Shown one piece after another: positions 6,172 through 63,935 of a stretch of 64,000 nucleotides of DNA. The notes beneath the pieces are model-generated. The model saw only the letters and a list, made by a program, of their open reading frames with translations. It had not been told where the DNA came from and did not search any database. Every line of letters starts with the position of its first letter. Positions within the stretch are counted from its first letter, which is position 1. The stretch lies in NCBI GenBank assembly GCA_048500355.1, contig JASNYD010000004.1, forward strand, positions 192,001 to 256,000, given 5' to 3'. The translations under genes were made by a program, and so were the position numbers. This stretch comes from Kofleriaceae bacterium. Its GTDB lineage: Bacteria; Myxococcota_A; Polyangia; Haliangiales; Haliangiaceae.

Positions 6172-6335
6172 GGTCGCGCCTGGTGCAACGGGTGCGCCAC
6201 CGCCCCACCGCCCGCCGCCGCCGCCGAACCTCGCGGAAGCTCGATCCCCTCGGGCCGCCCCTGGGGGAAGCTCTCCCAGCCACTCACCGGACTTCGGAGG
6301 GTCGCACCGAGGTCGCGACGCCCGGGCCGGTCCGC

Positions 6336-7166: not shown

Positions 7167-7221
7167 CGACGCGCAGGATACCGCGGCCGGCGGCGGCCGT
7201 CAGCGCGGCGCGCCGGGCCGG

Positions 7222-10573: not shown

Positions 10574-10611
10574 CGATCACCCGCGCTCCCCCGGGGCGGG
10601 CCGGGGGCGGC

Positions 10612-22019: not shown

Positions 22020-22091
22020 GGGCGGATAGCTCAGCGGAAGAGCATTGCCCTTACAAGGCAGTGGTCGCAGGTTCGAACCCTGCTCCGCCTA
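22020..22091 (+). tRNA. tRNA-Val (anticodon TAC).
   Basis: Manual cloverleaf fold. Acceptor GGGCGGA/TCCGCCT, D stem GCTC/GAGC, anticodon stem TTGCC/GGCAG, loop CTTACAA, T arm GCAGG-TTCGAAC-CCTGC, discriminator A. Confidence 0.85.
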
Positions 22092-22106
22092 CGAGCCTGA
22101 AAATCT

Positions 22107-22183
<77 letters not shown>

Positions 22184-23260: not shown

Positions 23261-23611
23261 GGCGCGCAGGTGCTCCCAGGCGACACGCTGGCGCGCCCAT
23301 GAGACCTCGCGCGCGACGCGCTCGAACACAGCTCGCTCCGTCGGCGTTGAACCTCGAGTCGTCAGCGCGAGGATCTGATCCTGTATATCAGGCGCGAGAA
23401 ACGTCAGCCGGACCAGGACCGAGATCCGCTGACGGCTGACACCGAGCGCTCGTGCGACCGTCGCGTAGTCACTGACCTGCCCCGCCTCGACGGCTGCGCG
23501 GACCTGGATCGCAAACGCCAGGATGCGAGCAAGCGGCGCGGGCGTGGGCGCAGGTCGCGGCGTCGGTGCCGGCCGCGGCAGTCTTCCACCGAGAATTGCG
23601 CCGTCAACGCG
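23213..23611 (-). CDS. Small HTH DNA-binding protein encoded downstream of the recombinase; a candidate recombination directionality factor or regulator.
   Basis: A GTG start preceded by an AAGGAGAAG RBS lies within the last codons of the recombinase. HTH-like segment ATVARALGVSRQRISVLVRLTFLAPDIQDQIL. Its 3' end overlaps the convergent XRE gene. Confidence 0.4.
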   Translation of the reverse strand, partial: RVDGAILGGRLPRPAPTPRPAPTPAPLARILAFAIQVRAAVEAGQVSDYATVARALGVSRQRISVLVRLTFLAPDIQDQILALTTRGSTPTERAVFERVAREVSWARQRVAWEHLRALHDAEVDGRALRDGR

Positions 23612-25121
23612 CACCGCGCTTCTCCTTGGTCGCGGCGGCGCTCTGGGAGAGGAACGAGGCCAGACGGATCTGATAGCCGCCATTCGCGGCGTCCACGGTC
23701 ACCTGGTCCACCGCGGAGCGCACGACCCGGGCGCGGTTCTCGATAGACAAGAGCTCCCAGACCTCGTCGAGCCGTTCGAGCGAGCGCGCCACCGCCGCTC
23801 GGGTCTCGAGCTCGGAGGCGAGCCGACCAAGCCGTTCCTCCAGCGTCCCACGCTCGGCGCGCGCGGTCGCCATGGCCGCATCGTTGTCCGCGAGTGCGCG
23901 CACAACACCGGGCGCCGTTGGGTCGGCAGCGTTCGAGAGGATCTGATGGCGACCTGCCGCAAGTTGCGCGACGCGCTGAGCCAGCGCGGTCTGCCCCGAT
24001 CGGAGCGCCTCGCGCTCCGCATCGAGCTCGGCGCTCACCGCATCGACCAGATCGTGATCGAGCCCGGCCTCGCCCAGGCGCTGGCGGAGCACGTCGGCGA
24101 CCGCCTCCTCGATCGGCCCAGCCGCCAGGTGTCCACTTGGACACGCTGCGGCGTCCCGCTTGTCGCGGCGGAGGCATCGGTAGTAGCGGTACCGCTTTCC
24201 ATTCTTTCGCACCGACGCGCCGACCATCCGCGTCCCACACGCCGCACAGCGCAGGACGCCACCGAGCAGGAAGTCGGAACCGGTGCGGGCGACGTCGCCA
24301 CGACGATGCACCTTCAGGAGCTCCTGCACCTCGTGCCAGGTTTGCCGGCTCACCATCGGTTCGTGGACCCCATCGACGAGCTCATCGCCGACCCGCAGGA
24401 GCCCCGCGTAGACCGGCGCGGTAAGGACGCGGAGCACGGCGTTCTTGGTCCAGTCGCCCTCCTTCGCCGGTGGCGGCGCTCCCGCCGCATTCAGCTCCGC
24501 GGCGACCTGATTCGCCGACCGCACGTCGAGATAGCTGTCGTAGATCTGCCGCACCCAGCGAGCGCGTTCCGGATCGGGCCGGAGGCGTCGCTCCTCGAAC
24601 ACATAGCCGAAGGGCGTAACGCCGCCCGTCCATTGTCCCCGGCGGCGCGCGGCGCGGATCTTGTCGCGCGTGCGCGCGCAGATCATCTCGCGCTCGAACT
24701 CGGCAAACGTCATGAGGATGTTCAAGACCAGCCGCCCCATCGGGTCCGCGGTCGAGAAGTTCTGCGTGACCGAGACGAACGCTGCACCGCCCTCCTCGAA
24801 GCGCGACATGATCTGGGTGAAGTCGAGGAGCGAGCGCGACAGGCGGTCGAGCTTGTAGACGACGACCACGTCGATCTTCCCATCGTCGATGTCGGCGAGC
24901 AGACGCTGGAACGCCGGCCGATCCAGGTTCGCCCCGGTGTAGCCACCATCCTCGTAGACCTCGGTCATGGTCCATCCGTCCGCGGCGCGCAACGCGACGT
25001 ACTGCTCGCACGCCTCGCGCTGGGCATCGAGCGAGTTGAACTCCTGATCGAGCCCATGGGTCGTCGACTTGCGCACGTAGATGACGCAACGCTTCGCAGG
25101 GACCGCGTCGCGGAGCTTCAT
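23604..25121 (-). CDS. Large serine recombinase (phage integrase/resolvase family).
   Basis: Resolvase catalytic domain (CVIYVRKSTTHGLDQEFNSLDAQ), recombinase domain, Cys4 zinc ribbon (CAACGTR...CPSGH) and C-terminal coiled coil. Start taken at an internal ATG (MKLRDAV) of track ORF 23604..25196. Confidence 0.85.
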   Translation of the reverse strand: MKLRDAVPAKRCVIYVRKSTTHGLDQEFNSLDAQREACEQYVALRAADGWTMTEVYEDGGYTGANLDRPAFQRLLADIDDGKIDVVVVYKLDRLSRSLLDFTQIMSRFEEGGAAFVSVTQNFSTADPMGRLVLNILMTFAEFEREMICARTRDKIRAARRRGQWTGGVTPFGYVFEERRLRPDPERARWVRQIYDSYLDVRSANQVAAELNAAGAPPPAKEGDWTKNAVLRVLTAPVYAGLLRVGDELVDGVHEPMVSRQTWHEVQELLKVHRRGDVARTGSDFLLGGVLRCAACGTRMVGASVRKNGKRYRYYRCLRRDKRDAAACPSGHLAAGPIEEAVADVLRQRLGEAGLDHDLVDAVSAELDAEREALRSGQTALAQRVAQLAAGRHQILSNAADPTAPGVVRALADNDAAMATARAERGTLEERLGRLASELETRAAVARSLERLDEVWELLSIENRARVVRSAVDQVTVDAANGGYQIRLASFLSQSAAATKEKRGAR

Positions 25122-25135
25122 GGGCGGCTTGCGCG

Positions 25136-25681
25136 TCACGGCGCGGCCTCCTCGCTCGCTCCCTGCGTGAGCCCGAAGAACTGGAAGCCGTTCCACTGGC
25201 GCTGCGTGATGGTCCGCGCGACGTGACTCAGGCTCTTGTAGCGCCGGCCTTGGTAGGTGAACGAATCCTCTCCGACCTCCACCTCGTGGTCCTGGCCGCG
25301 GTACCGGCGCGTGAGACGCGTCCCGGGCGCGGGCAGGCGCGGGTCGCGCTCGAGCAGCGCTCGCTCGTCGCGCTTGTCCTTCGCGGGCGCAACGATCTGC
25401 ACCGGCTTCGCCCGCATCCGCCAGCGAAGAGGAACCTCGTCGCCGAGCTCGGCCACGCGCCGCGCGATGCCATCCTTGGGGTACGGCTCGGCACGCTCCT
25501 GGATCACCGTTGCAACCGCGCGCATCAGATAGTCGCGGTTGTTCGTGCGTACCGTCTGACCGGTGAGCTCGGCCAGACGACGCGCCAGATCGCGCGAGCT
25601 CATCGTACTGAGTGCAGCAAGCTCGTCCGTGAGGTCAGCTAGCTGCTGCGAGCTTCGAGTGTCCTTCTTCGACGTCATGCG
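25136..25681 (-). CDS. DUF2924-family protein, the typical partner of large serine recombinases.
   Basis: C-terminal signature LTRRYRGQDHEVEVGEDSFTYQGRRYKSLSHVARTITQRQWNGFQFFGL. Strong GGAAGGAGAA RBS before ATG (MTSKKDTR). Confidence 0.75.
   Translation of the reverse strand, partial: RMTSKKDTRSSQQLADLTDELAALSTMSSRDLARRLAELTGQTVRTNNRDYLMRAVATVIQERAEPYPKDGIARRVAELGDEVPLRWRMRAKPVQIVAPAKDKRDERALLERDPRLPAPGTRLTRRYRGQDHEVEVGEDSFTYQGRRYKSLSHVARTITQRQWNGFQFFGLTQGASEEAAP

Positions 25682-29221: not shown

Positions 29222-29238
<17 letters not shown>
28192..29238 (-). CDS. Phage head morphogenesis protein (Mu gpF / SPP1 gp7-like).
   Basis: Lies immediately downstream of the portal gene. GGAGG RBS before an internal ATG (MTSPDDIL). 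The 5' end overlaps the portal 3' end. Family call by context and weak motif similarity. Confidence 0.45.
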
Positions 29239-30967
<1,729 letters not shown>

Positions 30968-30985
30968 CATCGACGCCATCTCCTC

Positions 30986-31611: not shown

Positions 31612-33114
31612 TCACAGCGCCTCTCCTGTGTCGACGCGCACGATGGTCACGGTCCCGAGCACCGGGAACTCGCGCCCGGCGAGCTGGACGTCTCGACCGC
31701 GACCCTGCAGGAGAACGCCATGTGGTGGCTCCGCCAGCTTCCGGATCCCGGGCGTGTCGATGACGACGTTCGCGACCTGTGACCACGCGAGCTCACCGAC
31801 AGGGTTCGCGTCGTGGTCTCGCAGGTAAAAGCCGAAGTCGATCTGTGGATTGAGCGAGCCGTCGGGGAGCGAGATTGCGAAGAACGACGCCAGGCGCTCC
31901 CGCAGCGATGCCGCGACCGCACTCGCGGTGGCACCTGCGGCGAGATAGACCTGCGCGGTCACGTCGACCACCGCGTACACCGGCGCTTGCACCCTGACCT
32001 GGAACGTCAACGTCGACGGGTGGACGACCGTGACCTGGCGCAGCACCTCGTCACGGAGGGTCTGGCTCGGCGCGCCCCCGCCATGCGGGATGACGTAGAG
32101 AATGCCGGCGTTCTCCTCGATCGTCGGATCCTCGTTGCGGGTCAGCATGAGCGCGCGCGCCACACCGGCAACCTGGCGGGCGTGGATCTCGAAGTCCTCG
32201 CGCGCCACGGTCCGGCCGGGCGCGCGGACTGCCTCGGGGATGCGCCGTCGCGCGTGGACGATCGTCTCTCGATCGATCCCGCCGGCTGCTGGCTGGCGGT
32301 TGACCACGCGTAGCGAGACCGGGCGACCGGTCGCATCAAGCACCGTTGACTCGACGACGCGTAGCGTTCCTGCCGCAACGTTTCCGCTCGTGCCTCCGCC
32401 GCTCTTGTAGGTGAGGCTCAGGCGACCCGCCGGCGGCACGCCCCGGCTACCGTCACCGAACCGGAGTCTTGCTCGGCCGTCATCGCCGACGTCCACGACG
32501 ACGTGTCGATCGGTCGCGCCGGTCGCCAGGAACGAGTCGACCGGCGCGAACACGCCCTGTGGCGTCGACGCGACGAGCGAGCCCTCCAGAAACGGTGCAT
32601 GCACGAGCCCGACGATCAGCGAGGGCGTACCCGCCGTCTCGATCGACACCGAGTGTGTCTCGCTGTGCTCGGCCTGGCCGACGACGAGCGGCGGGTCCTG
32701 CCCGGCGCCCAGCATCACCGGCGCGAGGAGCTGGAAGCGTGTTGGACGAGGAGATTCCTCGGACCGGACGATCGTTCCGGCGGGAACGATCACGTCGGCG
32801 GTCGGTGAACGCGCCAGGCTCAGCTCGAGCTCGACCGTCGCCGCGGCCGAGCCGAAGAGGCGCTCGCCGACCAGCGCCGCCAGCGCCGAGAGGGCGCGTC
32901 GCTGCGTCGCGGTGACGATGCGCGTCTCGCGGGCGAGCTGGTCCTGCCGGAACAGCACGACATCGCCCACGTACGCCATGAGCTCGAGGAGTGTCGTGCC
33001 CAGCGTCGCAACGTCCGGATCCCAGCCCGGAACCTCCGTGCGCGCGAGCTCGAGCAGGCGTGCCCGCAGCCGATCGAAGTCCAGGTCGGTGTAGTGAGCG
33101 GGCCGCGGGATCAT
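31612..33114 (-). CDS. Baseplate J-like protein (gpJ).
   Basis: About 500 aa. Lies between the gpW-like and gpI-like genes. The start overlaps the gpW stop (ATGA). Confidence 0.65.
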   Translation of the reverse strand: MIPRPAHYTDLDFDRLRARLLELARTEVPGWDPDVATLGTTLLELMAYVGDVVLFRQDQLARETRIVTATQRRALSALAALVGERLFGSAAATVELELSLARSPTADVIVPAGTIVRSEESPRPTRFQLLAPVMLGAGQDPPLVVGQAEHSETHSVSIETAGTPSLIVGLVHAPFLEGSLVASTPQGVFAPVDSFLATGATDRHVVVDVGDDGRARLRFGDGSRGVPPAGRLSLTYKSGGGTSGNVAAGTLRVVESTVLDATGRPVSLRVVNRQPAAGGIDRETIVHARRRIPEAVRAPGRTVAREDFEIHARQVAGVARALMLTRNEDPTIEENAGILYVIPHGGGAPSQTLRDEVLRQVTVVHPSTLTFQVRVQAPVYAVVDVTAQVYLAAGATASAVAASLRERLASFFAISLPDGSLNPQIDFGFYLRDHDANPVGELAWSQVANVVIDTPGIRKLAEPPHGVLLQGRGRDVQLAGREFPVLGTVTIVRVDTGEAL

Positions 33115-33443
33115 CGCGCCACTTCCACCGCCTGGCCACCGGCGAGCGTGATGCGGAGGCCGATCGCGGTCTCGCCGGCTTCGAACGCAGCGACGTCGAC
33201 CGTCTTGTCGGGGAGCCACGTCGCGAGCGCGTCCTCGCAGCGCACGCGGACGAGCTCGGCCTCGACGGCGTCGAGCGGTCGATGGCGGCACGCCTCGAGT
33301 GGGGTGCCGAATGCCGTCCGCCACAGCAGCTCGCCGGGCTCCGTCAGGAGCACATGCTCGACCTTGGCGCGCTCGAGAGCCGCACCCGTCGCGACGACAA
33401 CGTCGCGATCGATCCGGAACGGAAGCGAGAGCGAGGTCTTCAT
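33111..33443 (-). CDS. Baseplate wedge protein (GPW/gp25 lysozyme-like family).
   Basis: MKTSLSLPFRIDRDVVVATGAALERAKVEHVLLTEPGELLWRTAFGTPL matches the GPW_gp25 pattern. GAGGA RBS. Confidence 0.7.
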   Translation of the reverse strand: MKTSLSLPFRIDRDVVVATGAALERAKVEHVLLTEPGELLWRTAFGTPLEACRHRPLDAVEAELVRVRCEDALATWLPDKTVDVAAFEAGETAIGLRITLAGGQAVEVAR

Positions 33444-36215: not shown

Positions 36216-36683
36216 CGGCCTGCTCCTCGTGTCGACATGCCCTCGAGCGCCAGCGTGGCGACGAGGAGCAGTGGTTGGCCGTCCATCGCGATCTCGCGGT
36301 GCTCGTAGCTCGCCGACGTGACCACGGCCTCGAACGTGACGAGGCTCGGCCAGACCAGCAGGACCGACGGCGGCGCATGCCGCGGCGCCACGGGTGCGGT
36401 GAGCTTCTGAAGGAAGCGCACCGTCGCGACCAGATCTCGCGTTCCGCCCTCGCTCTCGGCCAGACGTCGGTCGAACCAGAGCTCGAGCGCCGATACCTGT
36501 CCGTTCTGCGTGAGCCCGTACTGGAGCGGCACGGACGCACGACCTGGGACCTCGTGCCGCGGCCATGACACCGAGATCGACCACGCGAAGGTCGGCGGGT
36601 GGGCGTTCGCCGTGAGTCGCTCGCCCGTGACCGCGTTGACGAGCGTCATGCGAGGGCCGCGCTGGCCGAGGAACGCGAGGCTC
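36212..36683 (-). CDS. Phage tail protein (gpU-like, by position downstream of TMP).
   Basis: 157 aa beginning MSLAFLGQRGPRMTLV. Lies between the TMP and gpX. The start overlaps the TMP stop. Confidence 0.4.
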
Positions 36684-39384
36684 ATCCCACCGCCCCCGGC
36701 GCGAACCCGCGCGCGGCCTCGTCCTGGCGGACGCGCTCGACGACTCGTGCGAGCGTCTCGCCGTCGACATCGAGGCGGACATTCAGATCGAAGTCCCCCC
36801 CTGACCTCACGCGTGACGCCACCGCCGCGACGCGCGTCGCACCCTCCGAGGCCACGAGTTCGACGCCGCTGCGGGTCGGAACGGCGCCAGGCACGCCCGC
36901 CGGCGCCAGGACGCGCAAACCGCCTCCCGCATCCGCCTGGCTCAGCAGGTCTCCCACACCGCCAGTGAGCCCGCGCCACGCCCGGCCCGGCGCACCCTTC
37001 ACGGAGCGCCAGGCATTGTCGAGCGTGCCGCCGATCGAGCTGATCGCCCGCTCGATGGTGTTGACGATGTCGATGACGGCGTCGCGGATCTGGAGGAGGA
37101 AGCGGTAGACACCCTCGAAGACACTGGCGATCCCGTTGAGGAGGCCGCGGAAGGCGTTGGGCACGTCCTGCGTCAGGAAGCGCACGACCATCCCCACCCC
37201 GTCGATGATTCGACGCAGGTCGCGCGCGATGGCGGACGTCACCTCGTCGAAGACCCTGAGGATGGCTGTAAGCACCTTTGCGAGTCCCGCGGCGGCGAGC
37301 ACGACGGCCGTGAGCGCGCCACCGACGATCTTGCCAAGCACGAGCCCGAGCGTGCGGAACGCGCTGGTCGACGACTTCGTGTTCGCACGCAGACCGTCTG
37401 ACGCGCCGAAGAGGCCGAGGAACGTGTCGACCAGATCACCGAGCGCATCGCGCAGCGTCATGATCGCCGGGCCGACGTACGTCCACATCGCGGCGAAGCC
37501 GTCGAGGATGCCGCCGGTCATCCGCAGCGCGATCGTCGCCAGCTTGGTCACGATCGCGACCACCCCCGCCAGCGCCTGCCCCATCGCCTGCCCGAACGCG
37601 CGGAACTCGTCGGAGGGAAGGTTGGTCGAGCCGCCGACGATCGCGCGCACGAGGTGTGTGAACGCGCCCGCGAGCTCGCGGACAGCGCCGGCGAAACCGT
37701 CGAAGATCGGCCGCGCGGTCTCGAGCCCCGACCGGAACCCCTGCGCAACGCCACCCACGAGCGCTCGCACGCGGTGGACGAGCATGTAGATCGTCACGAG
37801 GAACTGCCGGATCCCGAGGTTCTCGGCCCTCCGCAGATCCTCCCGGAGCGGGCCCGAGAAACCACCGTCAGTGAAGAGCTGCCCGAGCCCACGTAGCGTC
37901 ATCGAGATCACCGCGCCGGCCCGCACGACGAAATCCCGGAAGCCGCCGAGGTTCTTCTCGTAGGCGCTCTTCAACCCCGCCAGCGCTAGCGCGAGCGCAC
38001 CGACGGCAAGGAGCACAGGTCCGAGCAAACCGCTGAGCCCGCCGAGCTGCACACCGAGCGCGCCGAGACCGATCCGTAGGAGACCGGACGCACTCCGCAC
38101 CGCCGCGAGCGTGCCGGCGAGCGCCCCGAGCCCGGCGACGGCAGCGACCACCACGGCGATTCCCTTCCGGACCGACGGCGGTAGATCGAGAAAGGCATGC
38201 GTGAGCGCGCGCGCCGCGGCGGCGAGCCGCGTGACGACCGGGGTGACGATCTCCAGGACCGGCTTCCCGACTGCCAGCGCCAGCGTCTTGAGCGAGCCGA
38301 CGAAGAGTGTCCACTGCCCGCGGAAGCCCCCGAGCAGCGTGTCGCGGAATCGGGCTGCCGTCCCGTCGGCCTCCTGAAACTGATCGCGCAGATACGCGAC
38401 AGCGTCGGCGCCTCGCACGACCTCACCGGACGCCGTGCGGATGCCCGAACGGAGCTGCTGAGAGACCGCGAGCACACCGCCGAGCGCCTCGGTGCCGAAG
38501 GCGCCGCGGAGGAACGCGGCTCGTCGCTGTTCGGTCATGCGCCCCAGCGCCGGCTCGAGGTCGACCAGGACATCGAGAAAGTCGCGGAAGCGGCCCTCGC
38601 TGTCGGTGACCGCGACGCCGACACCACGGAGCGCGCGCTGCGCCTTCGGCGTCGCCATCTCTCCCATCGCGACCGCGACCGCGGTCGAGGCCCGCTCCAC
38701 GCCCGGGATCACGTTCTTCACAAGCCCGAGCGTGATGAGCGTCTCCTCGAGCGACTGGTTTGCGCTCTGCGCGCCGCGGCTCGCCGTGCCGAGTGCGAGC
38801 GGGAGCTCGCGCGGAGCAAGCGCGAACAAGTTCACCGACTGCAAGAGCGTGTCGACCGCCCGGCTGGCGTCCTTCGCCTCGAGCCCGAACGCCTTGAGCG
38901 TCTGTGCCGCCAGCCCCGCCGCGTCCTGCGGCGTGAGCTCGCCCAAGGAGCTCGCCGCCAGGTCGAGGACCGGCACGAGCATCTCGAGCGCCTCGTTCGC
39001 CAGGTAGCCCGCCTGGCTGAGGTCGCGGATCCCGACCGCCGCCTCGGTCGCGGAGAACTGTGTCGATGCGCCCACGCGCAGCGCGGCGTCCTCGATCTGC
39101 CGCATCTCCTCGGCGGTCGCGCCCGAGACCGCCAGGATCTGCCGGAGCGCATCATCGAACGAGGCAGCATCACGCAGCGACGCGGCACCGCCGAGCGCGC
39201 CACCCACGCCGGCGGCAAGCCTTCCCAGCGAGTCGCCGACGCCGGTAAGTGCCTGGTCCATTCTCGCCGACGACCTGTCGACGCCGGTGCTGAGCCCGCG
39301 CAGCTTGGAGCCGACGCGCTCGAACACTCCCGACGCGAGGTCGCGCGCCGACAGCAGGAAGCCGAGCCCGAGGTTCAGTGCCAC
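36682..39384 (-). CDS. Phage tail tape measure protein.
   Basis: 900 aa Ala/Gly/Leu-rich helical protein with internal TM-like Gly-rich segments. GTG start with a GGAGG RBS. Lies immediately downstream of the chaperone frameshift ORF. Confidence 0.85.
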   Translation of the reverse strand: MALNLGLGFLLSARDLASGVFERVGSKLRGLSTGVDRSSARMDQALTGVGDSLGRLAAGVGGALGGAASLRDAASFDDALRQILAVSGATAEEMRQIEDAALRVGASTQFSATEAAVGIRDLSQAGYLANEALEMLVPVLDLAASSLGELTPQDAAGLAAQTLKAFGLEAKDASRAVDTLLQSVNLFALAPRELPLALGTASRGAQSANQSLEETLITLGLVKNVIPGVERASTAVAVAMGEMATPKAQRALRGVGVAVTDSEGRFRDFLDVLVDLEPALGRMTEQRRAAFLRGAFGTEALGGVLAVSQQLRSGIRTASGEVVRGADAVAYLRDQFQEADGTAARFRDTLLGGFRGQWTLFVGSLKTLALAVGKPVLEIVTPVVTRLAAAARALTHAFLDLPPSVRKGIAVVVAAVAGLGALAGTLAAVRSASGLLRIGLGALGVQLGGLSGLLGPVLLAVGALALALAGLKSAYEKNLGGFRDFVVRAGAVISMTLRGLGQLFTDGGFSGPLREDLRRAENLGIRQFLVTIYMLVHRVRALVGGVAQGFRSGLETARPIFDGFAGAVRELAGAFTHLVRAIVGGSTNLPSDEFRAFGQAMGQALAGVVAIVTKLATIALRMTGGILDGFAAMWTYVGPAIMTLRDALGDLVDTFLGLFGASDGLRANTKSSTSAFRTLGLVLGKIVGGALTAVVLAAAGLAKVLTAILRVFDEVTSAIARDLRRIIDGVGMVVRFLTQDVPNAFRGLLNGIASVFEGVYRFLLQIRDAVIDIVNTIERAISSIGGTLDNAWRSVKGAPGRAWRGLTGGVGDLLSQADAGGGLRVLAPAGVPGAVPTRSGVELVASEGATRVAAVASRVRSGGDFDLNVRLDVDGETLARVVERVRQDEAARGFAPGAVG

Positions 39385-42433: not shown

Positions 42434-44629
42434 TCACGCCTCCGCGTTGGCGAGCTCGGCGTCGAGCGCGCGCAGGTCCTGTGACAGCTCGACGATCACG
42501 AACTCGGCGGGCTTCGCGGTCGCGAGCCCGACGCGCAGCCGGAGCTGGCCATCGAGCACGCTCGACGGCGGGTTGAGCGCATCCGATACGTCGACGAAGA
42601 ACGCGGTGCGCGGATCGCGCGTCGCGAACGCGCCGATGTTCATCTGCGAGAGCAGGAACTGGAACACCGCGCGGTACACCTCGGCGCGCAGCTCTGGCGT
42701 GTTGCTCCGGTGCCGCACACGGTCGAGCCCGAGCGCGAGGCTACGCGCGATGTAGATGACGCCGCGCCGCTCGGGCACCGACGGGAAGTTGCCGGTCGCC
42801 TTGAGCGTGCGAGCGCCGTCGATGTACCGCCCGCGGATCGGGTTCACGCGGTGCGGAAACACCAGGTCGCGCGCGTTCTCGTCGAGCACCTCGTCCATCT
42901 CGGCACCGAGCACGCCGGCCAGGCGGCCGATGTCCACACCCGCCGGCGCCTCGTAGACGCCGCCCGGCCGCGCGCCATCGGTGCGCGCGTAGACCCCGGC
43001 GATGTGTCCCGAGGGCGGCACGATCAGATCCTCGGCGGGACCGAGCGCTCGCGGGCTGGGGTTGGTCACCCGAACGCGAGGCCAGTACACCGCGCCGAAC
43101 TCCGACCGCCCCTCGATCCCACCGACGCCGGCCACGTACGCGACGACGTCGTCGGCCGTCAGCGCGGGAGCCACGTCGAGGATCGCGAACACACGCCCGC
43201 GGCGCACCTCCTCGCAGTAAGTGAGGAGTCCCTCGTGCGCAACCGCCGAGCTGCGCCCGGGTATTGCAACGATCGACAGTTCGTCCACGGCGTCGAGCGC
43301 GCGCAGCCCCGAGCGCGCCACGGGCGAGCCGAGGAAGTCGAGGTCGCCGAGCCCGGCAAGGCCGTCGCCCCCCTGCGCCAGCTCGACGCTCTGCGCGTCC
43401 GGCCGCGGTCGACCTGACAGCGCGAGGTCATCGACCTGGATGAGACGCGATCCGGTGCGAGCGTGGTTGACGATGGTCGGCGCGTAGCGAGCCGTGGCCG
43501 GATCCATCGTGAGCGCGAGGTACGACTCGCGCATCCGCGCCCCCTCGGTGACAAGGAGGTCGAAGGTTGCCCCGACGCCCGGTCGCACCGTGATCGTGAG
43601 CCGGTTGGCGTAGATTCCCGGATCGCGCCCTCGAGCGCGCAGCACCACCGAGCTCACGCCTGCGCTCCCCACGTGCGCGAGCAGATCCAGCCCGAGCGCC
43701 GGGGTCGTTCCGCCCTGAACCTGCAGGCGCGCTTGCGGACCCGTCGAGAGCCCGCGCAGGACCAGTGCACCCTGCGCATTAGCCTCCGCGCGGACACCCG
43801 CGCCGAGCGCGCCGAGGAGCGCGTCGATCTCGACGATCGTCACCGCGGCGAGCCGATCGACCGAGCCCGCGCCGTGTGCGATGTCGCTCCCGAACGAGAG
43901 CGCGGCCGTCGCCGTCCCACCCACGATCTGGAGCTGGCTCGCCCGGCCGGCCGACGCTGTCGCGAGCTCCACGGCACCGCCCGCGGCCACCGCGGCAACG
44001 GCGCCCGCCAGCGCGGCGTTCATGACCGCCGCCACCTCGGCGGCCGTCGCCTGCGTGATCGCAGCGAAGTCCTGCGCCCGGCACGTGACCGTGGCCGGCG
44101 CGTTGCCGTCGATCGCGACCTCGAGAGTCATTCCGTCGGCGAGGAGGAACGGCTCGCCTCCCGAGGTCACGAGCCGTGCTGGTGTCCCCGTGAACGTCAC
44201 GACGAGGGGCGCGGCGCCGTCGACTGCGATGCTGAGGAGCTCACCGTCGGCCACGGCGAACGGGGCGACCGCGCCGGTGACGATCGCAGGCTGTGGCGCC
44301 ACCGCGGAGACGAGCGCGGCGCTCGCGGCGACGGCGGTCATGCTGCCGGCGTCGTCCGGGTCTTGGTAGTGCGCGGTGCGCACCACGTGGAGGACGCGCC
44401 CACCGTTCTGGAAGAAGCCGAGGACGGCGTGAGGAAGGTCGGCGCCCGGCACGAACCCGCCGAACACGCGCGCATACTCCTCCCAGTTCCCGACACGGAC
44501 GGCCGTTCCGATGGGGCCGCGCTCCGCGATGCCGACCAGGCCGACGACCGCCGTCGCCGCGGACGTGACGATCCGGACCGGCGGGTCCTCCTCGCGAATG
44601 ATGACCTTCGATGCTCCGAGCTCAGCCAC
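42434..44629 (-). CDS. Phage tail sheath protein.
   Basis: 731 aa. N-terminal GVFIxE-like region ([25 protein letters not shown]) and C-terminal sheath domain ([19 protein letters not shown]...GVIYIARSL). Confidence 0.85.
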
Positions 44630-48715: not shown

Positions 48716-49498
48716 CTACTTGTCCCCGTGGAACGAGAGCGACTTGTCGACCGACGCGCGGTCCATCGGCGCGTTCAGGTCGAGCGGCCAGCTCACGTCA
48801 TCCTCGTCACCAGGGTCGCCGCCGGCTCCGCCACCCTCGGGTGTGCGCGACGCCGGCAGGCCCACGTTCTTCTCGACCTTGCCGATGCGGTCGCCCTGTT
48901 CTTTGAGCTGCGTCTCGAGCTTCGAGATCGAGCCGGCGATGCCGTCGAGCTTGGCCATCACCGGGTCCGCGCCACCGGGCGCCGCGTCCCGCTTCTGCGC
49001 CGGCGCGGTGACCGCTGTCTGAAGCCGCGCGAGCGCCGCCTTGACCTGGTTGAGGAGCGCCGTGACCGACTCGGCCGCCTTGCGACGGCGCTCGGCCTCC
49101 GCCTTCTCGTCCTCGTCCTCGTCGTCGTCCTCCTCTCCGCCTTCCTCGTCGTCGTCGTCGGCGCCTCCGCCACCACCGCCGCCCTTCGGCTTCTTCGGCG
49201 GCGGAAACGCCTTCTCCGCCGCGTCGATCGTGACCAGCTCGGCCAGCGCGGTGACCGCCTCGGTCAGCGCGGCCATCGCCTCGGTCCCGCCCGTCGCGGC
49301 TCCGCCGCCGCTCCCACCATCGCCCGGCGCGTCGTCCGGCGCCGGCGTTCCTTCGTCCGCCATCTTCTGTCTCCTCTTCACGATCAGGAAGCGGCGCTGG
49401 TTCGCCGCCCGATCGACGAGGCTGACTTCCTCGACGATCATGTCCACCAGCCGATGCACGCCGTCGGCGCGCTCGGAGTCATCGTTGTCGCCGGCCAT
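48716..49498 (-). CDS. Putative capsid scaffolding protein.
   Basis: AAGGAG RBS before ATG ([13 protein letters not shown]). Conserved N-terminus ([22 protein letters not shown]), acidic Gly/Asp/Glu-rich linkers and coiled-coil segments. Lies between the protease-domain gene and the MCP. Confidence 0.45.
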
Positions 49499-50823
49499 CA
49501 CGCCGCTCCTTCGCCGCCCGGCTCGGGCACACGCCGTGCCGAGCCGCCGATCGAGAAGCCGGTAAAGTCGCCGGACTTGACCTTCGCCCACAGCGCATCC
49601 GACAGGACGTGGACGCCGAGCAGCCAGGTGCCCTTCTTCACCACCTCCTCGCCGATTCGCAGGTCGTCGAGCGCGAGATAGCTCTCCACGATCTTCACCT
49701 GCCCGTTCACCGGCACCTGGTGCATGAGGCCCAGGCCGCGGAACTCCTCCAGGAACCGGTGCGCGACCTTGCGCACCTCCTCCGCCGAGTAGATGTCCTC
49801 CTGCGCGTCGACCGTCTCCGGCTCGAGCACGACCCCCAGCACGAACCGCTGCTCGCCGCGCTCCTCCGCCTTGAGGACCCGTCCGGTGATGCGGAACTCG
49901 TCCTCGACTTGGCCGTCCCAGTCATCGATCTGCACCTCGTCGGTGCTGAGCCCCGCAAGCGCCTTGGCCGTCGGCTCATAGTTCGAAGCCAAGATCTGGG
50001 TGAGCACGCTCGAGCCGCCCACGCCGCGCATCGAGCGGATCGTCCGCGGCGTGCGGATGCGCTTGACCGTGAAGCCCGCCTCGACGAGGGCCTTGGGCAG
50101 CGTGCCGCGAATCCCGTACGTCATGAGCCACTTGCCCTTCAGGTCCTTCAGCACCTTGAGGAAGCGGGCCTCGTCGAACTTCTTCTCGCCGACGTTCGCG
50201 TCGTACCCGGCGTACGGCGGGTCGAGGAAGAACACCGTGCTCTTGCCGTCGTACTTCCGCACGACCTTCTCGTAGTCGCCGTCGTAGACCTTCACCTTGC
50301 GCAACCGCGGCGCGTGCTGCGCCACGCGGTCCACGGTCGACGCCTCGACGCCCTGCGCCACCGGCGAGAAGCTCCGTCCGCGCAGCTTCCCGTACGAGAA
50401 GTGCGTGACGTAGAGGAACTTGTAGAGCCAGTCCACGTCGCTCGACGGCTCGGCATCGTAGAGCTTGAGAAAGGTCGACTTGTCGCCCTTCCAGCTCCGC
50501 GACCGCAGCTTGCCGAGGAACGCGTCGTCGGACCGCTGGATGAGTCGGTACGCCTTCGCGATGTCGGCATCGAAGTCGTTGATCGCCTCCACGGCTGCTG
50601 GCTCCTTCGCGAACAGCACTGCGGCGCTCCCCGCGAAGGGCTCGACGTAGGTCGTGTGCGTCGGCAGGAGCCCGGCGAGCCGCTTGGCGATGCGTCGCTT
50701 GCCGGCGGGCGAGCTCCAGATGGTCTTCTCGACCTCCTCGCGCGCTCCGAGCGTGAGCGCCGTCAGCCGCTCGATCGCCGTCCGAACGCGGGCCAGCGCT
50801 TCGGCCGATCCGACCGTCGTCAT
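49498..50823 (-). CDS. DNA N6-adenine methyltransferase (Dam, D12 class) fused to a C-terminal XkdF-like prohead-protease domain.
   Basis: Dam motifs YVEPFAGSAAV...INDFDADIAKAYRLI and FFLDPPYAGY. The C-terminal 170 aa match the XkdF pattern (VLEPETVDAQEDIYSAEEVRKVAHRF...IVESYLA...GTWLLGVHVLSDALWAKVKSGDFTGFSIGG). Strong GGGAGG RBS. The long N-terminal extension of track ORF 49498..51147 is judged spurious. Confidence 0.7.
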   Translation of the reverse strand: MTTVGSAEALARVRTAIERLTALTLGAREEVEKTIWSSPAGKRRIAKRLAGLLPTHTTYVEPFAGSAAVLFAKEPAAVEAINDFDADIAKAYRLIQRSDDAFLGKLRSRSWKGDKSTFLKLYDAEPSSDVDWLYKFLYVTHFSYGKLRGRSFSPVAQGVEASTVDRVAQHAPRLRKVKVYDGDYEKVVRKYDGKSTVFFLDPPYAGYDANVGEKKFDEARFLKVLKDLKGKWLMTYGIRGTLPKALVEAGFTVKRIRTPRTIRSMRGVGGSSVLTQILASNYEPTAKALAGLSTDEVQIDDWDGQVEDEFRITGRVLKAEERGEQRFVLGVVLEPETVDAQEDIYSAEEVRKVAHRFLEEFRGLGLMHQVPVNGQVKIVESYLALDDLRIGEEVVKKGTWLLGVHVLSDALWAKVKSGDFTGFSIGGSARRVPEPGGEGAA

Positions 50824-51365
50824 GGCCGACCTCCCGCCACGCGCGCAACCCTGAGCGCGCGCACCCTCGCGCGCCCAGAAGCCGCTCGCGCTGTGCGGTG
50901 TCGCTCGTCGGGACGGCCGCCCTCGAGCGCGCCACGACCACGCAGCCAGGAGATCACCCGGCGCTGGGTCTGCACCTTGAGCCACGCTGGCGACACCCGA
51001 CGCCGCGGACGGAGCCGACACACGACGTCGAGAAACGCCACGACGACCAGGCTGTTTCCGTCGTCTTGGGACATCGCCTCCGATTCGAAGCGGCGGGCGA
51101 TGCGCTCGAGCCACGTGCGGCACGCGATGACCAGCGCCGCCGACCACGCCGGAGCCGGCGAGCGTTGGGCCTGACGGGTCAGCGCACCGACCAGGAGCTC
51201 GAGCCGCGCGTGAGAAGCGTCATGCAGCACCCGCGCAAGCGCTGGCCCAGTGCCCATCGCACGAAGGACGTGCTCCTTGGACGCGGCGATGTCGACGCCG
51301 TGCCAGGCGCTCGGTCGCGCCAGCCAGGCGGCCAGCCGTTCGATCAGCTCCTGGAATGAGCTCAC
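50820..51365 (-). CDS. Hypothetical phage protein.
   Basis: 181 aa. Its stop overlaps the Dam start (ATGA). Confidence 0.35.
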   Translation of the reverse strand: MSSFQELIERLAAWLARPSAWHGVDIAASKEHVLRAMGTGPALARVLHDASHARLELLVGALTRQAQRSPAPAWSAALVIACRTWLERIARRFESEAMSQDDGNSLVVVAFLDVVCRLRPRRRVSPAWLKVQTQRRVISWLRGRGALEGGRPDERHRTARAASGRARVRALRVARVAGGRP

Positions 51366-59237: not shown

Positions 59238-59295
59238 GCTCGACGCGGCGATCACTTCCATGCGTGGTTCGAGAGCCTGCTCCCGGGTAGGATTC

Positions 59296-59718
59296 ATGCG
59301 CATGGTTTTGGGCTCCTGTTACACGTGCCAAGGCGTTCCACCCATCTGCCCTGAGTGCATCAACGAGCTCTCGGAGCGATGGAACAGCAGCGCACGTGCA
59401 TTCGGGTGGCGCTGGGGCGCGCGGCTCCGCATCACCATGGACGTTCGCGGTGAGGCAAGCAGATCCTGGCCGGCATGGGAGAGCGAGCCAGCGACGGATC
59501 TGCGCCGCATCTGCCGGAAGATCGTGGAGCCGCTGGCAAGTGCTGTTCCCGAGCGACGCGACCCGCGCCTCGTCGAGATCTTCGCTCGGGTGTGCGCGTC
59601 AGCAGCGCGGGAAGCCTATCTGGGCCTGACGCTGGAGGAGGCGCGGGAGGTCGTCGCCGATTGGGACCGACGCTTCCCGACGTGGCAACGCGACCTCATC
59701 CAGCGTCTCCGTGGGTAG
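59296..59718 (+). CDS. Small zinc-ribbon protein.
   Basis: CYTCQGVPPICPEC Cys4 motif. AGGA RBS. Lower GC. Start taken at an internal ATG of track ORF 59260..59718. Confidence 0.45.
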   Translation: MRMVLGSCYTCQGVPPICPECINELSERWNSSARAFGWRWGARLRITMDVRGEASRSWPAWESEPATDLRRICRKIVEPLASAVPERRDPRLVEIFARVCASAAREAYLGLTLEEAREVVADWDRRFPTWQRDLIQRLRG

Positions 59719-59727
59719 CCGTTCGTC

Positions 59728-62304
59728 ATGACTGGCTCCGACGACACCGCCCTCGCGGGGTACCATATGTACTTCGCTCCGCCACTCGTCTCACCGAGTG
59801 GCAATGCGGCTCCGATGCGTGGCCCGCTCTCGGACGACTCGGGGCGCGCGCTGATGATCGCGCCCGGCGTCGAGCTCGACCCGCACGTCTACCCTGAGCT
59901 GATACCTGGGCGCTACCTGCTGGTGCCGGTGGACGCGCGCGGTCGCGAGCTGCCGCATCTGCAACGAATCGAGAAGCAGATCGTCGACACGCACCGAACG
60001 CGCTTGATGCAGGCCGTCACCGCCGAGGCAACACTGCTCGTGATGGGCGAGGCCCTCCAGAACCCGAAGCTCGCGACGGCGCTCTTCGACCTGGTTCAGT
60101 CGGGTGACAAGCAGGGGCTCCTGCTTCATGCGATGCAGCGAGCCGGCCAGGAGATCTGGGGCGGCCCGGTTCCCGATGCGCCTCTCGACGAAGAGACAAG
60201 GCGTCGCCTCGTGAAGATGACCGCCGACAAGCTCATCGAGAGCGTCCGCGGCGTCCTCGCCCAGGACGATCCCCAACGTTACCGTCTCGAGCGAGAAGGC
60301 TTCGATGCGCTCGTCAAGCAGCCCCTGGTGCTCTCGGTCGACCACATCATGGCGTCGGCGGCTCGCGCGGACTACGAGGACGCCGCGGTGCGCGCTCTTG
60401 CGAAGCTCTACATCCGTGAGGAGCTTCCGTTCTGGTTCGTCGGCGACATCCTGCCCGGCCTCGGCCAGCTCGACGTCTTTCTCATCCTCATCCGCTACGC
60501 GAGCGGCGACATCGTCGGCGGTCTCATCGAGCTCTTCGAGAAGGATCGCTTCCCGCGAACGCTCGAAGGGAGCGAGCAGCGAGCGCTTGCGCTGTTCGCG
60601 CTGTGGACCCTTGGCGGGGCTCCGGTGCGGCGACCGGTCCTTCGGTGGATGCGGCGTCTCATCCGCACGCCGCTCAGTGTCAGGGCGGCCGCTCTCCTCT
60701 TGTGGCTGGCGCGCGAGCTCGCCGACGCCGGCTTGAACCAGATCGTCGACGAGCTGGCGCTATCTGTGGAACAGAGCCTGATCGACGGCATCGGCACGGC
60801 TGCTGCTCACCTCCTCGCACGCGGCACGCTCGACGACGTGATCCTGCGGCTGCCGCAGCGGCGCGCAGACCTGCCCTTCCCTGGCGTGAGCGTTCGTGCG
60901 CCGCAGAAGCCCCGCCCGAACGAGCCTTGTCCCTGCGGCAGCGGATTGAAGGTCAAGAAGTGCCACGGCGATCGTGCCCTGGAGCTGGTGGCGCCAGCGG
61001 CGAGCCGCGGCCGGCAGATCCGTGAAGCCTCGGGCCGCATCCAACCAGATCAGGTTCCTCGGTTGGCGCGCGTCGACCTCGCCCGGATGGACCTCGGCAC
61101 GACTCGCGACGACACCCTCGTGCAGCTCCTCCGCTGGCAGATGTACCTGGCGGACTGGGACCGCGCAGGGCTGATCGCCGACGAGCTCGCCAGCCGCCCT
61201 TCGATGCGCGCGCAGGCCGACACCCACCGGTACGAGCTCATCACATGGGCCCTCCGGTACGACCAGCACGAGGTTGCCTCGAAGCAGATCGCGAAGCTCT
61301 TGAACCCGGAGACCGCGGCGGGCGTGCGCGTGATGCTCGCCCACCGCGCTGACGAGTCAGCCACACTCGCCGATCTGCGAACCGCCGCCAAGGTCGCTGT
61401 CGAGGATCCTACCGGGGCAAACGCGTTTGCTCTTGCCACGCTCCTGATGAGCTTCGACAAGTCGCTCGCGATTCTCGTCGCCCGAAGTGCGCTACGCCCT
61501 GACCAGCTCGACAACGCCGCTGTGCTGATCCAGCAGATCGAGGACGCGCGCGACGACCTCCTCCTTCCTCCCGGTGATCCGGCCATCGACCTCTTCACCA
61601 TGATGGGCGGTGTCCGCAAGGCCCGTGTCGCGGCAGACCAAGAGCGAGCTTCGCTCGCGAAGGAGGCTGACTCGCTGCGCAACGAGCTCGAGGCGAAGAC
61701 GCGACGGCTGTCGGAGATGGAGCGCGACTTGGAGCGTCGTGAGCAGGAGCTCCGCGAGGCGCGCCAGCGCGCCGACGATGCACAAGCTCAACCGACGCGT
61801 TCAGAGCAGGAGCGGCGGGCGAGCAAGGAGAAGATCGGGCGGCTCGAGGCGCTCGTGCGGGAGAAGAACGAGCAGCTCGCCGAGTCCCGACGCGCGCTCG
61901 CCGTCACGAGCGCGCCGACGCCAGTCGGGACGAGCGCGACCGTGGGGACTGACGACGACGACGATGAGGATGAACTCGAGGAAGCGCAGGACGCGGCGCC
62001 GCGGACCGTACTGGTCGCACGCTACACGCCGCGGGCGGCGACCGCCTTGGCGGCGGTCCCGCGCAACGTTGGAAGCATCGCTGCGCGTACGGTTGGGGCC
62101 CTGGCCGCGGGAGACGACGGCCCCTGGCGGAGTGTGAAGCAGGCCAAGGACATGCCGAGGCAGGTGTTGATGGCGCGTATCGGCATCCACTACCGGCTCT
62201 TGTTCCGTTGCGACACCGGCGGCGAGCTCGAGGTGGTCGACCTCGTCACGCGTGAAGACCTGATGTTGACGCTCAAGCGTCTCCGGAACACGAGGAGTCC
62301 ATGA
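59728..62304 (+). CDS. Large multidomain protein: N-terminal domain of unknown function, SEC-C zinc motif, helical (TPR-like) region, coiled coil, acidic linker, C-terminal RelE/ParE-like toxin domain.
   Basis: SEC-C motif PCPCGSGLKVKKCHGD (~nt 60926-60972). Coiled coil SLAKEADSLRNELEAKTRRLSEMERDLERREQELREARQRAD. DDDDDEDELEE linker. C-terminus MPRQVLMARIGIHYRLLFRCDTGGELEVVDLVTREDL resembles the RelE/ParE fold. Confidence 0.55.
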   Translation: MTGSDDTALAGYHMYFAPPLVSPSGNAAPMRGPLSDDSGRALMIAPGVELDPHVYPELIPGRYLLVPVDARGRELPHLQRIEKQIVDTHRTRLMQAVTAEATLLVMGEALQNPKLATALFDLVQSGDKQGLLLHAMQRAGQEIWGGPVPDAPLDEETRRRLVKMTADKLIESVRGVLAQDDPQRYRLEREGFDALVKQPLVLSVDHIMASAARADYEDAAVRALAKLYIREELPFWFVGDILPGLGQLDVFLILIRYASGDIVGGLIELFEKDRFPRTLEGSEQRALALFALWTLGGAPVRRPVLRWMRRLIRTPLSVRAAALLLWLARELADAGLNQIVDELALSVEQSLIDGIGTAAAHLLARGTLDDVILRLPQRRADLPFPGVSVRAPQKPRPNEPCPCGSGLKVKKCHGDRALELVAPAASRGRQIREASGRIQPDQVPRLARVDLARMDLGTTRDDTLVQLLRWQMYLADWDRAGLIADELASRPSMRAQADTHRYELITWALRYDQHEVASKQIAKLLNPETAAGVRVMLAHRADESATLADLRTAAKVAVEDPTGANAFALATLLMSFDKSLAILVARSALRPDQLDNAAVLIQQIEDARDDLLLPPGDPAIDLFTMMGGVRKARVAADQERASLAKEADSLRNELEAKTRRLSEMERDLERREQELREARQRADDAQAQPTRSEQERRASKEKIGRLEALVREKNEQLAESRRALAVTSAPTPVGTSATVGTDDDDDEDELEEAQDAAPRTVLVARYTPRAATALAAVPRNVGSIAARTVGALAAGDDGPWRSVKQAKDMPRQVLMARIGIHYRLLFRCDTGGELEVVDLVTREDLMLTLKRLRNTRSP

Positions 62305-63325
62305 GTACGATCCTTCACGGCGAGGCCCTCTGGACCGAGCTTCGTCGCCGCGCGCAGGCGAGCAAGCGGTTGGACGCCGTCGTCAGTTACATAGGCGGCA
62401 CCCGGCGAAGCTCATCAAGTGGCCCGCTCGATCGAGTGTCATCTGCGACTTGTCGCCCATGACCGTGGAGCGAGGGGCTTCGTCCGCGCGCGGCGCCCGC
62501 GAGCTCGTCGCAAAGAAGGTGGCCCTCTTTTCTCTCCCGGGCCTTCACGCGAAGGTCTACATCTTCGACGACAGCGCAATCGTGGCATCCGCGAACTTGT
62601 CGTCGCACTCGTCGGTCCTCATCGAGGCCGGAGTCCTTGTCACGTCTCGACAGGAACTTCGCGCGCTGCGTGCATTCGCGAATCAGGCTCGAGGCCGCGC
62701 GTTGCCGGTCGGTGACGATACCTACCTCAAGGAACTCGCGAAACGCGAACCGAAACACCTCGCGCCTCCGTCGCTGCCACGCCCACACGTCGGCACATCG
62801 CCGAAGATCGCGTTCACGGAGGGCGACGATGTTTGGGTGTGCACGTGCCAGCCCGACAAGAAGGAGACCAAGGCAGAGCGGAAGGCTAAGGCGCGCCACG
62901 CGACAGACCTTTCCGAAGTACATGGCCTGCCCGACGAGAGCTCGGTCGAATGGATAAACGGGTGCACCTCGGAGACGAAGCGCGCCCTCGCCGAGTTCCA
63001 CTACTGTTTCTATTGGTGGAAGCCGGCACCGGGTGAATGGAAGACCACCTACGGGTACCTCGATGGGCCTTGGCAATCACTCGGCGGCCTCGATCTGGGG
63101 AAGCAGTTCGGGGACCGGCGGTACTGCGTCCCCAACGTGAAGCGACGACGGCGAATGATTCGTATCGACCGCGAGCGCCTCGAGGTCCTGGCGGATGCCC
63201 TGGGTCGGACCATCCCCGCTGATCCGCGAGACCTGTGGCATCTCATCGACAAGGGACCTGCGCCTGCGAAGCTGAGCCGCAAAGGGATCGCGACACTGAT
63301 CGGGTTGATGAGGGAATCGAGGTAA
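62301..63325 (+). pseudogene. PLD-family (single HKD motif) nuclease, interrupted by a frameshift near 62400. This may be a genuine pseudogene or a sequencing indel.
   Basis: An ATG at 62301 overlaps the upstream TGA (ATGA) and encodes MSTILHGEALWTELRRRAQASKRLDAVVSYIGG. The frame then closes at 62460. The -1 frame continues from ~62402 as PAKLIKWPARSSVICDLSPMTVERGAS...LHAKVYIFDDSAIVASANLS (HxK...D...SANLS motif) to 63325. The track reports only the TTG-initiated 62450..63325 ORF. Confidence 0.5.
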
Positions 63326-63425: not shown

Positions 63426-63935
63426 ATGCTGGAACAACTTTCGGCCGTCGAGGACGAGCTCCGGACCCTCCTGGCGGAGGCGGATCCTTGGCAGTCGCTC
63501 CGCATCGACTACCATCCGCCGGTCGTGGAACGCGTGTGGCGACCGTGGCGCGACCTCCGCTTGTCGCTTCATCGCATTCATCCCTGTGGTCCAGGCGAGG
63601 CGCTACTGCACCCGCATCCGTGGCCATCAGCCGTGTTGATCATCGAAGGGGAGTACGAGATGGGAGTGACGTACGGTGCAGGTTCGTCGCCGCCGCCGCT
63701 TGGGGCTCGCATCGTTCTCGGCCCTGGAGCGCGCTACGAGATGACTGAGCCGGATGCTTGGCACTACGTCCGCCCGCTCGGCCGGCCGAGCCTCTCGATC
63801 ATGGTGACGGGCGCCCCGTGGTCGCGGGCCATGCCCCTCGAGCCCGAGCATCCCCTCAAGCCGATGAAGGATGCCGAAAGGAATCAACTGATCGCCGCGT
63901 TCGCATTGGCGCTGTCCGCTCGAGGCTCGACGTGA
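63426..63935 (+). CDS. Cupin-domain protein (ChrR-like cupin).
   Basis: IDYHPPVVERVWRPW...LHRIHPCGPGEALLHPHPWPSAVLIIEGEYEM pattern. Lower GC. Last gene before the window end. Confidence 0.5.
   Translation: MLEQLSAVEDELRTLLAEADPWQSLRIDYHPPVVERVWRPWRDLRLSLHRIHPCGPGEALLHPHPWPSAVLIIEGEYEMGVTYGAGSSPPPLGARIVLGPGARYEMTEPDAWHYVRPLGRPSLSIMVTGAPWSRAMPLEPEHPLKPMKDAERNQLIAAFALALSARGST

Follow-up and report, generated by a model that had tools for sequence, protein, structure and literature searches.

A RelE/ParE-like fold predicted at the C-terminus of a prophage-encoded SEC-C protein and across its uncharacterised family

The SEC-C protein described here is encoded near the end of a 64,000-nucleotide stretch of contig JASNYD010000004.1 (positions 192,001 to 256,000 of the forward strand) from a Kofleriaceae bacterium, assembly GCA_048500355.1; the whole stretch is referred to as the window. 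According to structural models, the C-terminal ~95 residues of the protein form a genuine RelE/ParE-superfamily (BECR) fold, and at the level of predicted structure this can be regarded as settled. The combination of SEC-C motif, coiled coil and RelE-like domain is the usual layout in a large uncharacterised family. The chances are about even that the protein is a single-chain, cis-regulated, ribosome-directed RelE-type effector.

Fold of the C-terminal domain and layout of the family

The last 109 residues were modelled with AlphaFold2 from an alignment of 21 relatives. The model had a mean predicted local distance difference test score (pLDDT) of 87.1 and a predicted template modelling score (pTM) of 0.79. 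Its strands (E) and helices (H), in the 109-residue numbering, were E14-17, H19-27, H30-44, H48-52, E64-69, E73-79, E84-92 and H93-106. The top Foldseek match in the Protein Data Bank (PDB) was RelE of Thermus thermophilus (2KHE; E 5.5e-5, template modelling scores 0.66/0.79), followed by Mycobacterium tuberculosis RelE1 and RelE2 (E 6-9e-5), Cami1 (2e-4), YafQ (3.9e-4) and ParE2 (9e-4). The sequence-only reading had placed a RelE/ParE-like fold at 62016-62301 (residues 764-858; the peptide quoted there is residues 760-845). The AlphaFold2 models and the fold searches bore this out, and in the comparison of the modelled C-terminus with known toxin structures, RelE-type structures ranked first in both fold searches. 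The C-terminal domain had no match in NCBIfam or PADLOC, and a phmmer search of the PDB with the single domain sequence gave a spurious match to a designed protein only.

The features of the open reading frame (ORF) are as follows.

59728..62304, + strand: whole ORF, 858 aa plus stop
59728..60282, + strand: N-terminal extension, aa 1-185, with a small beta domain (aa 30-85) and three helices
60292..60849, + strand: helical-repeat domain A, tetratricopeptide repeat (TPR)-like, aa 189-374; pLDDT >90, profile matches to generic TPR only
60895..60969, + strand: SEC-C zinc-knuckle motif, aa 390-414, C401-x-C403-x8-C412-H413
61006..61557, + strand: helical-repeat domain B, aa 427-610, from the full-length model
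61579..61908, + strand: long coiled coil, aa 618-727, helices 618-686 and 693-727
61915..61995, + strand: disordered acidic linker, aa 730-756, pLDDT <50, with DDDDDEDELEE at 61951-61983
62014..62289, + strand: predicted RelE/ParE-superfamily (BECR-fold) domain, aa 763-854, from models, fold searches and profiles
62137-62139, 62176-62178, 62194-62196 and 62251-62253, + strand: conserved basic residues K804, R817, R823 and R842, respectively

The GC content at third codon positions (GC3) in this frame was 0.76-0.92 between about 59800 and 62200, the N-terminal part included, and the whole 858-aa ORF therefore looks coding. The NCBI gene model starts at M30, has 829 aa and is named just 'SEC-C domain-containing protein' in this Kofleriaceae metagenome-assembled genome. 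The SEC-C motif (PF02810, residues 398-414) was above the Pfam threshold, with 26.5 bits against a cut-off of 20.4 (E 5.6e-6). Family matches to the coiled coil were of the SMC/Rad50 coiled-coil type only. The full-length model, with 135 sequences in its alignment and a pLDDT of 83, upheld the earlier proposal that the toxin-like domain is tethered through the acidic linker to a long coiled-coil/TPR scaffold.

The same protein had earlier been treated as a one-off fusion, a view that did not hold. A first homologue search returned ten proteins of 625-695 aa, which aligned from residue ~186-208 of the window protein to its end, and this alignable region takes in the C-terminal domain. The second and third, word-indexed homologue searches returned fragments or nothing new. 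When 1.84 billion cluster representatives were searched exhaustively with a profile, 514 proteins had E<=1e-30, which gives a family with the same architecture in at least 514 clusters at 50% identity. Among the best 150 of the 514, nearly all were 620-760 aa long and matched the profile end to end. Helical-repeat domain A is the first region that the window protein holds in common with the family, and the shared order is helical repeats, SEC-C zinc knuckle, helical repeats, coiled coil, acidic linker and RelE-like domain. The members were almost all from uncultured bacteria, and some are labelled 'RelE of RelBE' in IMG (COG-based). A scan of a genome collection gave 80 loci, with true relatives only in L004-L006 (Haliangiales, Kofleriaceae, Archangiaceae); the other 77 of the 80 were unrelated SEC-C proteins, because the scan patterns fell on the SEC-C motif.

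Conservation was calculated from 146 full-length, diverse members. The SEC-C motif was the best-conserved module (3.36 bits of information per column) and the RelE-like domain the second (2.28 bits), compared with 1.2-1.7 bits in the scaffold. C401, C403 and C412 were each ~99% conserved. In the linker, the charge was conserved and the sequence was not: the mean net charge was -5.8 over 30 residues, and 89% of members had a net charge at or below -3. The adjoining RelE-like domain had a mean net charge of +5.9.

The N-terminal ~185-205 residues of the window protein had no counterpart in any other family member and no family match, and their model was moderately confident. In an 88%-identical relative on contig P0002, the N-terminal region was called as a separate, overlapping 241-aa ORF; therefore, either a frameshift may be present in one of the two copies or the extension may have been fused recently. 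The possibility that the extension is a fused copy of the gene found upstream in chromosomal loci was rejected, as there was no similarity between them.

Sequence type and catalytic residues of the RelE-like domain

When profiles of the domain were searched against all PDB sequences, the matches were Rv2866 (RelE2/RelG; E 4e-4) and T. thermophilus RelE (E 2e-3), with weaker ones to RelE1 (E 0.04), YoeB (E 0.1) and also RelK. Designed armadillo repeats, repeatedly top-ranked in these searches, matched the alpha2 helix only and were rejected as spurious. Trimming the profile to the beta-sheet half gave clean RelE2 and YoeB alignments. The alignment to M. tuberculosis RelE2 followed the pattern K-x12-S-A-R-x-G-x-Y-R-L-L-[FY]...H-R-x-D, in which K804, R817, R823 and R842 align with residues of the K, SARRG, YR and HR motifs. 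These positions were nearly invariant in the 146 members: 804 is K/R (frequency 0.96), 817 R/K (0.99), 819 G (0.95), 822 H/Y (0.94), 823 R (0.99) and 842 R (0.98).

Since R823 and R842 align with the arginines of the RelE2 YR and HR motifs, they would correspond to R61 and R81 of Escherichia coli RelE, respectively, and R817 would fall at RelE K54/R56. These assignments were transferred through RelE2 and through a direct hhalign alignment to E. coli RelE; as that alignment is weak (E 0.079) and a lead only, the residue mapping onto E. coli RelE is approximate. An hhalign comparison with RK2 ParE gave E 8e-4 and was likewise taken as a lead only. The conserved basic catalytic residues, which the sequence-only reading had named as a point to check, were present in part: the R61 and R81 counterparts are 98-99% conserved, and the K52 and Y87 positions are not conserved. 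On balance, judged from these alignments, the domain looks RelE/YoeB-type, with the two key arginines intact and the catalytic set incomplete, and an mRNA-cleaving activity is plausible.

Several findings weigh against such an activity. At the position of E. coli RelE K52, the family has varying hydrophobic residues, and the counterpart of K54 is ambiguous, being S/M when transferred via the RelE2 alignment or R817 in the hhalign alignment. No conserved counterpart was found for the general acid/base residues K52 and Y87 of RelE or E46, H83 and Y84 of YoeB. After R842, the consensus continues as x-D-L-E and then as a basic amphipathic helix, with neither Tyr nor His conserved. The best Pfam match of the window domain is named ParE_like: PF24732, 'ParE-like toxin domain', at residues 787-844, with a score of 16.2 bits when the full protein was searched and of 20.9 bits (E 3.6e-4) with the C-terminus alone, below the cut-off of 24.4. 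The toxin call that had been made by eye thus agrees with an independent, though weak, profile match. The missing Tyr is not decisive, because RelE itself has no classical acid/base pair and depends on the ribosome.

The ParE_like name also bears on the alternative that the domain is a ParE-type DNA gyrase poison and not an RNase, in which case the activated protein would trap gyrase and damage DNA. PF24732 recognised 31 of 40 diverse members at E<0.01 and about 7 of the 40 at E<=3e-5 (roughly the cut-off), PF05016 matched 5 of the 40, and YoeB and YhaV one each. However, according to Gerdes 2025 (PMC11980606), the ParE and ParE-like names in Pfam do not separate RNases from gyrase poisons. 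Among solved structures, the family profiles matched RelE, YoeB and RelK only. No solved ParE was found at E<=10 in the searches of PDB sequences, so that the poisons of E. coli O157 (ParE2, 5CZF) and Mesorhizobium (ParE, 6X0A) were missed, and the fold searches were headed by RelE-type structures. True ParE gyrase inhibitors are described in the same paper as lacking the essential RNase catalytic residues (PMC11980606), whereas the R61/R81-type arginines are conserved here. A gyrase poison is therefore improbable.

Chromosomal and prophage settings

Orthologues in Kofleriaceae/Haliangiales, 34-36% identical to the window protein, showed conserved chromosomal synteny. A protein of ~300 aa with a weak STAS match is encoded immediately upstream in four Kofleriaceae-clade loci, at the following positions.

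L002, 8577-9539: weak-STAS gene
L084, 4077-4988: weak-STAS gene
L085, 1897-2778: weak-STAS gene
L005, 3-719: weak-STAS gene

In three of these loci the gap to the SEC-C/RelE gene is 4-34 nt, and the arrangement suggests that the two genes form an operon in the Kofleriaceae clade. Glycogen phosphorylase is encoded downstream in L002, L085 and L086. The family member of L003 has quite different neighbours. A role of the weak-STAS gene as an antitoxin or conserved partner was considered and rejected. Outside the four Kofleriaceae-clade loci, the gene did not turn up in the window, L003 or L086 (for L004 and L006 the check was by BLAST only), and it is therefore not a general partner.

No recurring small antitoxin-like gene was found in the loci examined, in which some of the neighbours were scanned and the neighbours differ from locus to locus. 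The antitoxin domains RHH, Phd/YefM, HTH and ParD were not detected in the protein with Pfam or NCBIfam. A type II toxin-antitoxin system is recognised by an adjacent antitoxin gene or a fused antitoxin domain, and in these searches the protein had neither.

The window copy sits in a tRNA-integrated myovirus-like prophage. The GC content falls from ~0.75 to ~0.68 at 22 kb, exactly at the tRNA-Val and tRNA-Asp genes (22020-22183). The prophage stretch described here, 22020-52500 of the window, contains the following genes.

23604-25196: large serine recombinase (integrase)
29222-30979: portal protein
31612-33324: baseplate wedge protein
36682-39384: tape-measure protein
42434-44629: tail sheath protein
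49498-51147: DNA methyltransferase fused to a prohead protease, an unusual ORF

Beyond the structural genes lie Toprim, AAA_25/DnaB-like and SNF2-type helicase genes, and the SEC-C/RelE gene comes after these replication genes, less than 5 kb from the window's end. Prophages often carry genes for exclusion and abortive infection. A viral contig of 64.7 kb in IMG/VR encodes a second family member (696 aa, 38% identity), whose neighbours are unrelated. No family member was found in the collections of cultured-phage and plasmid records.

Carriage by a prophage would also fit a fused toxin-antitoxin addiction module, in which the N-terminal 750 aa act as a long cis-antitoxin and the gene stabilises the prophage by post-segregational killing and not by sensing. 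The acidic linker adjoining the basic toxin domain is consistent with this, and Gerdes 2025 lists 195 fused toxin-antitoxin genes of the RelE/ParE superfamily (PMC11980606). However, none of the known antitoxin domains sought was detected in the protein, the majority of the family is encoded on chromosomes in stable synteny, and the conserved 650-aa scaffold with its zinc knuckle and TPR-like repeats far exceeds what neutralisation needs. An addiction module is thus very unlikely.

Several ORFs next to the window gene were also noted. The SEC-C gene is preceded, at a distance of 10 nt, by a 152-aa ORF (59260-59718) with a CxxC...CxxC pattern (CYTCQGVPPICPEC), for which neither Pfam nor PHROG gave a match. 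On a related prophage contig its position is taken by a 140-aa ORF, and the 152-aa ORF might be a prophage-specific partner of the SEC-C gene. Downstream, the start of a 53-aa ORF (62301-62462) overlaps the SEC-C gene's stop as ATGA, and a 291-aa ORF (62450-63325) has an HKD motif (LHAKVYIFDD) and weak PLDc_2/NgoFVII-type matches. The two read like one PLD-family nuclease gene with a frameshift near 62395-62410; a pseudogene, recoding or an error of assembly could explain this. This PLD-family gene is not a conserved neighbour of the family. Farther downstream, a 169-aa ORF (63426-63935) had a weak PHROG match to 'cysteine dioxygenase' (cupin-like, E 7.8e-4). On the prophage-like contig P0002 (genes 6180-8882 and 10001-11953), a second SEC-C protein of 900 aa is encoded ~1 kb upstream of the family member, giving two SEC-C proteins in tandem; the window has a helicase where P0002 has the second SEC-C protein.

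Proposed mechanism and meaning of the architecture

In the proposed effector, the RelE-like domain would be the active part: on entering the A site of the ribosome, it would cut the mRNA or at least obstruct it, so that translation stops. RelE-type toxins are not known to act outside the ribosomal A site. At rest, the domain would be restrained by the remainder of the polypeptide, and the conserved acidic linker would cover its basic RNA-binding face in the manner of acidic antitoxin tails. The coiled coil may hold a dimer, the SEC-C knuckle may anchor the protein to the translation machinery, and a protein trigger may be sensed by the TPR-like repeats. The prophage copy would likely serve superinfection exclusion or abortive infection, or phage control of host translation.

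The layout differs from that of the characterised RelE/YoeB mRNA interferases (2KHE; RelE1, 9G12; RelE2/RelG, 3G5O; YoeB, 2A6Q). These are stand-alone proteins of ~85-95 aa with an adjacent antitoxin gene, whereas the present domain ends a protein of 650-860 aa, no antitoxin gene was found among the neighbours scanned, and the C-terminal Tyr/His (RelE Y87; YoeB H83/Y84) is not conserved. The solved precedent for a RelE fold gated by a fused sensor is Cami1, a CARF-RelE fusion and type III CRISPR ancillary effector (PDB 8PHB, 8PHJ) whose structure was solved on the 70S ribosome (8PHJ). Cami1 is encoded in CRISPR loci and senses cyclic tetra-adenylate via its CARF domain. In contrast, the window protein has no CARF domain detectable with Pfam or NCBIfam, its neighbours are phage replication genes and not type III CRISPR genes, and its other modules are the SEC-C knuckle, the TPR-like repeats and the coiled coil; no linked gene for making a signal was found.

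The canonical CxCx8C[HC] zinc knuckle of the family is the same as that of the SecA C-terminal tail, YecA/AscA and Rugutis. The RelE/ParE domain is absent from those proteins, and the similarity is confined to the ~20-residue motif, which is C-terminal in SecA and YecA and internal here. SEC-C in SecA and YecA/AscA binds ribosomes and SecB (bioRxiv 10.1101/613315; 10.1101/2020.07.21.215244), and Rugutis, a lactococcal SEC-C protein, is a validated single-gene antiphage system of the abortive infection (Abi) type (PMC11381338). Ribosome binding by the SEC-C motif of the present family would be an extrapolation from SecA and YecA, which counts against the proposed docking. Gerdes 2025 (PMC11980606) described RelE/ParE-fold domains in larger proteins (fused toxin-antitoxin genes, PtuZ, ToxM) as proposed in phage defence, and explicitly set aside multidomain proteins without an identifiable antitoxin. 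No SEC-C fusion was found in the accessible portions of its text and supplementary tables (PMC11980606). Full-text literature searches found no description of the SEC-C/TPR/coiled-coil/RelE architecture, of its size or of its antitoxin-less state.

A different explanation keeps the RelE/ParE fold and drops the nuclease or toxin role. The domain would then bind ribosomes or proteins as an adaptor within a housekeeping factor, such as a YecA/AscA-like chaperone or regulator associated with translation, and no antitoxin would be needed. This would account for the lack of a conserved antitoxin-like neighbour in the loci examined and for the missing Tyr/His general-acid position and K52 counterpart with the ambiguous K54 counterpart. 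It has a precedent in YecA/AscA, a SEC-C protein and a ribosome- and SecB-binding chaperone. PADLOC-DB v2 had no whole-protein defence model for the protein and gave only motif-level SEC-C (E2, PDC-S12) and coiled-coil matches. The chromosomal orthologues adjoin housekeeping-looking genes, with the weak-STAS gene upstream and glycogen phosphorylase downstream in conserved synteny, and not obvious defence islands, an arrangement that also fits a non-defence, non-toxic role. However, the near-invariant R817, R823, R842 and K804 are at RNA-contacting or catalytic positions of the RelE type and are not core hydrophobics. The RelE-like domain is also better conserved than the scaffold, two family copies are on viral or proviral DNA, and the absent Tyr tells little in view of RelE's own reliance on the ribosome. 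Altogether, an adaptor role is rather unlikely.

A broader version of the effector proposal is held only tentatively, and the chances lean against it. The family may constitute a new class of single-chain switches that target translation and have no antitoxin. Its members would reside on the ribosome as immune or stress sensors, with copies captured by phages for their own purposes. The SEC-C knuckle would hold the protein on the ribosome, and a phage protein or a stress protein would be sensed by the TPR-like repeats; upon release of the acidic linker, the tethered RelE-type domain would cleave A-site mRNA.

RelE/ParE toxins are normally understood as two-gene toxin-antitoxin pairs. In the few multidomain versions studied, such as Cami1, a RelE fold is wired to a sensor and translation shut-off becomes signal-controlled. 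The fold, the superfamily and the idea of a sensor-RelE fusion were thus already known, and the Pfam 'ParE_like' profile catches part of the family. The present analysis places a predicted RelE-type fold at the end of a large, conserved and essentially unannotated family, where it is paired with a zinc knuckle of the ribosome-binding type found in SecA and YecA. If the domain is inactive, a toxin fold would have been recruited as a ribosome-binding adaptor. If it is active, the family would show that a ribosome-dependent nuclease can be gated without an antitoxin, in a way that is widespread and distinct in mechanism, and an orphan class of SEC-C proteins would gain a concrete function.

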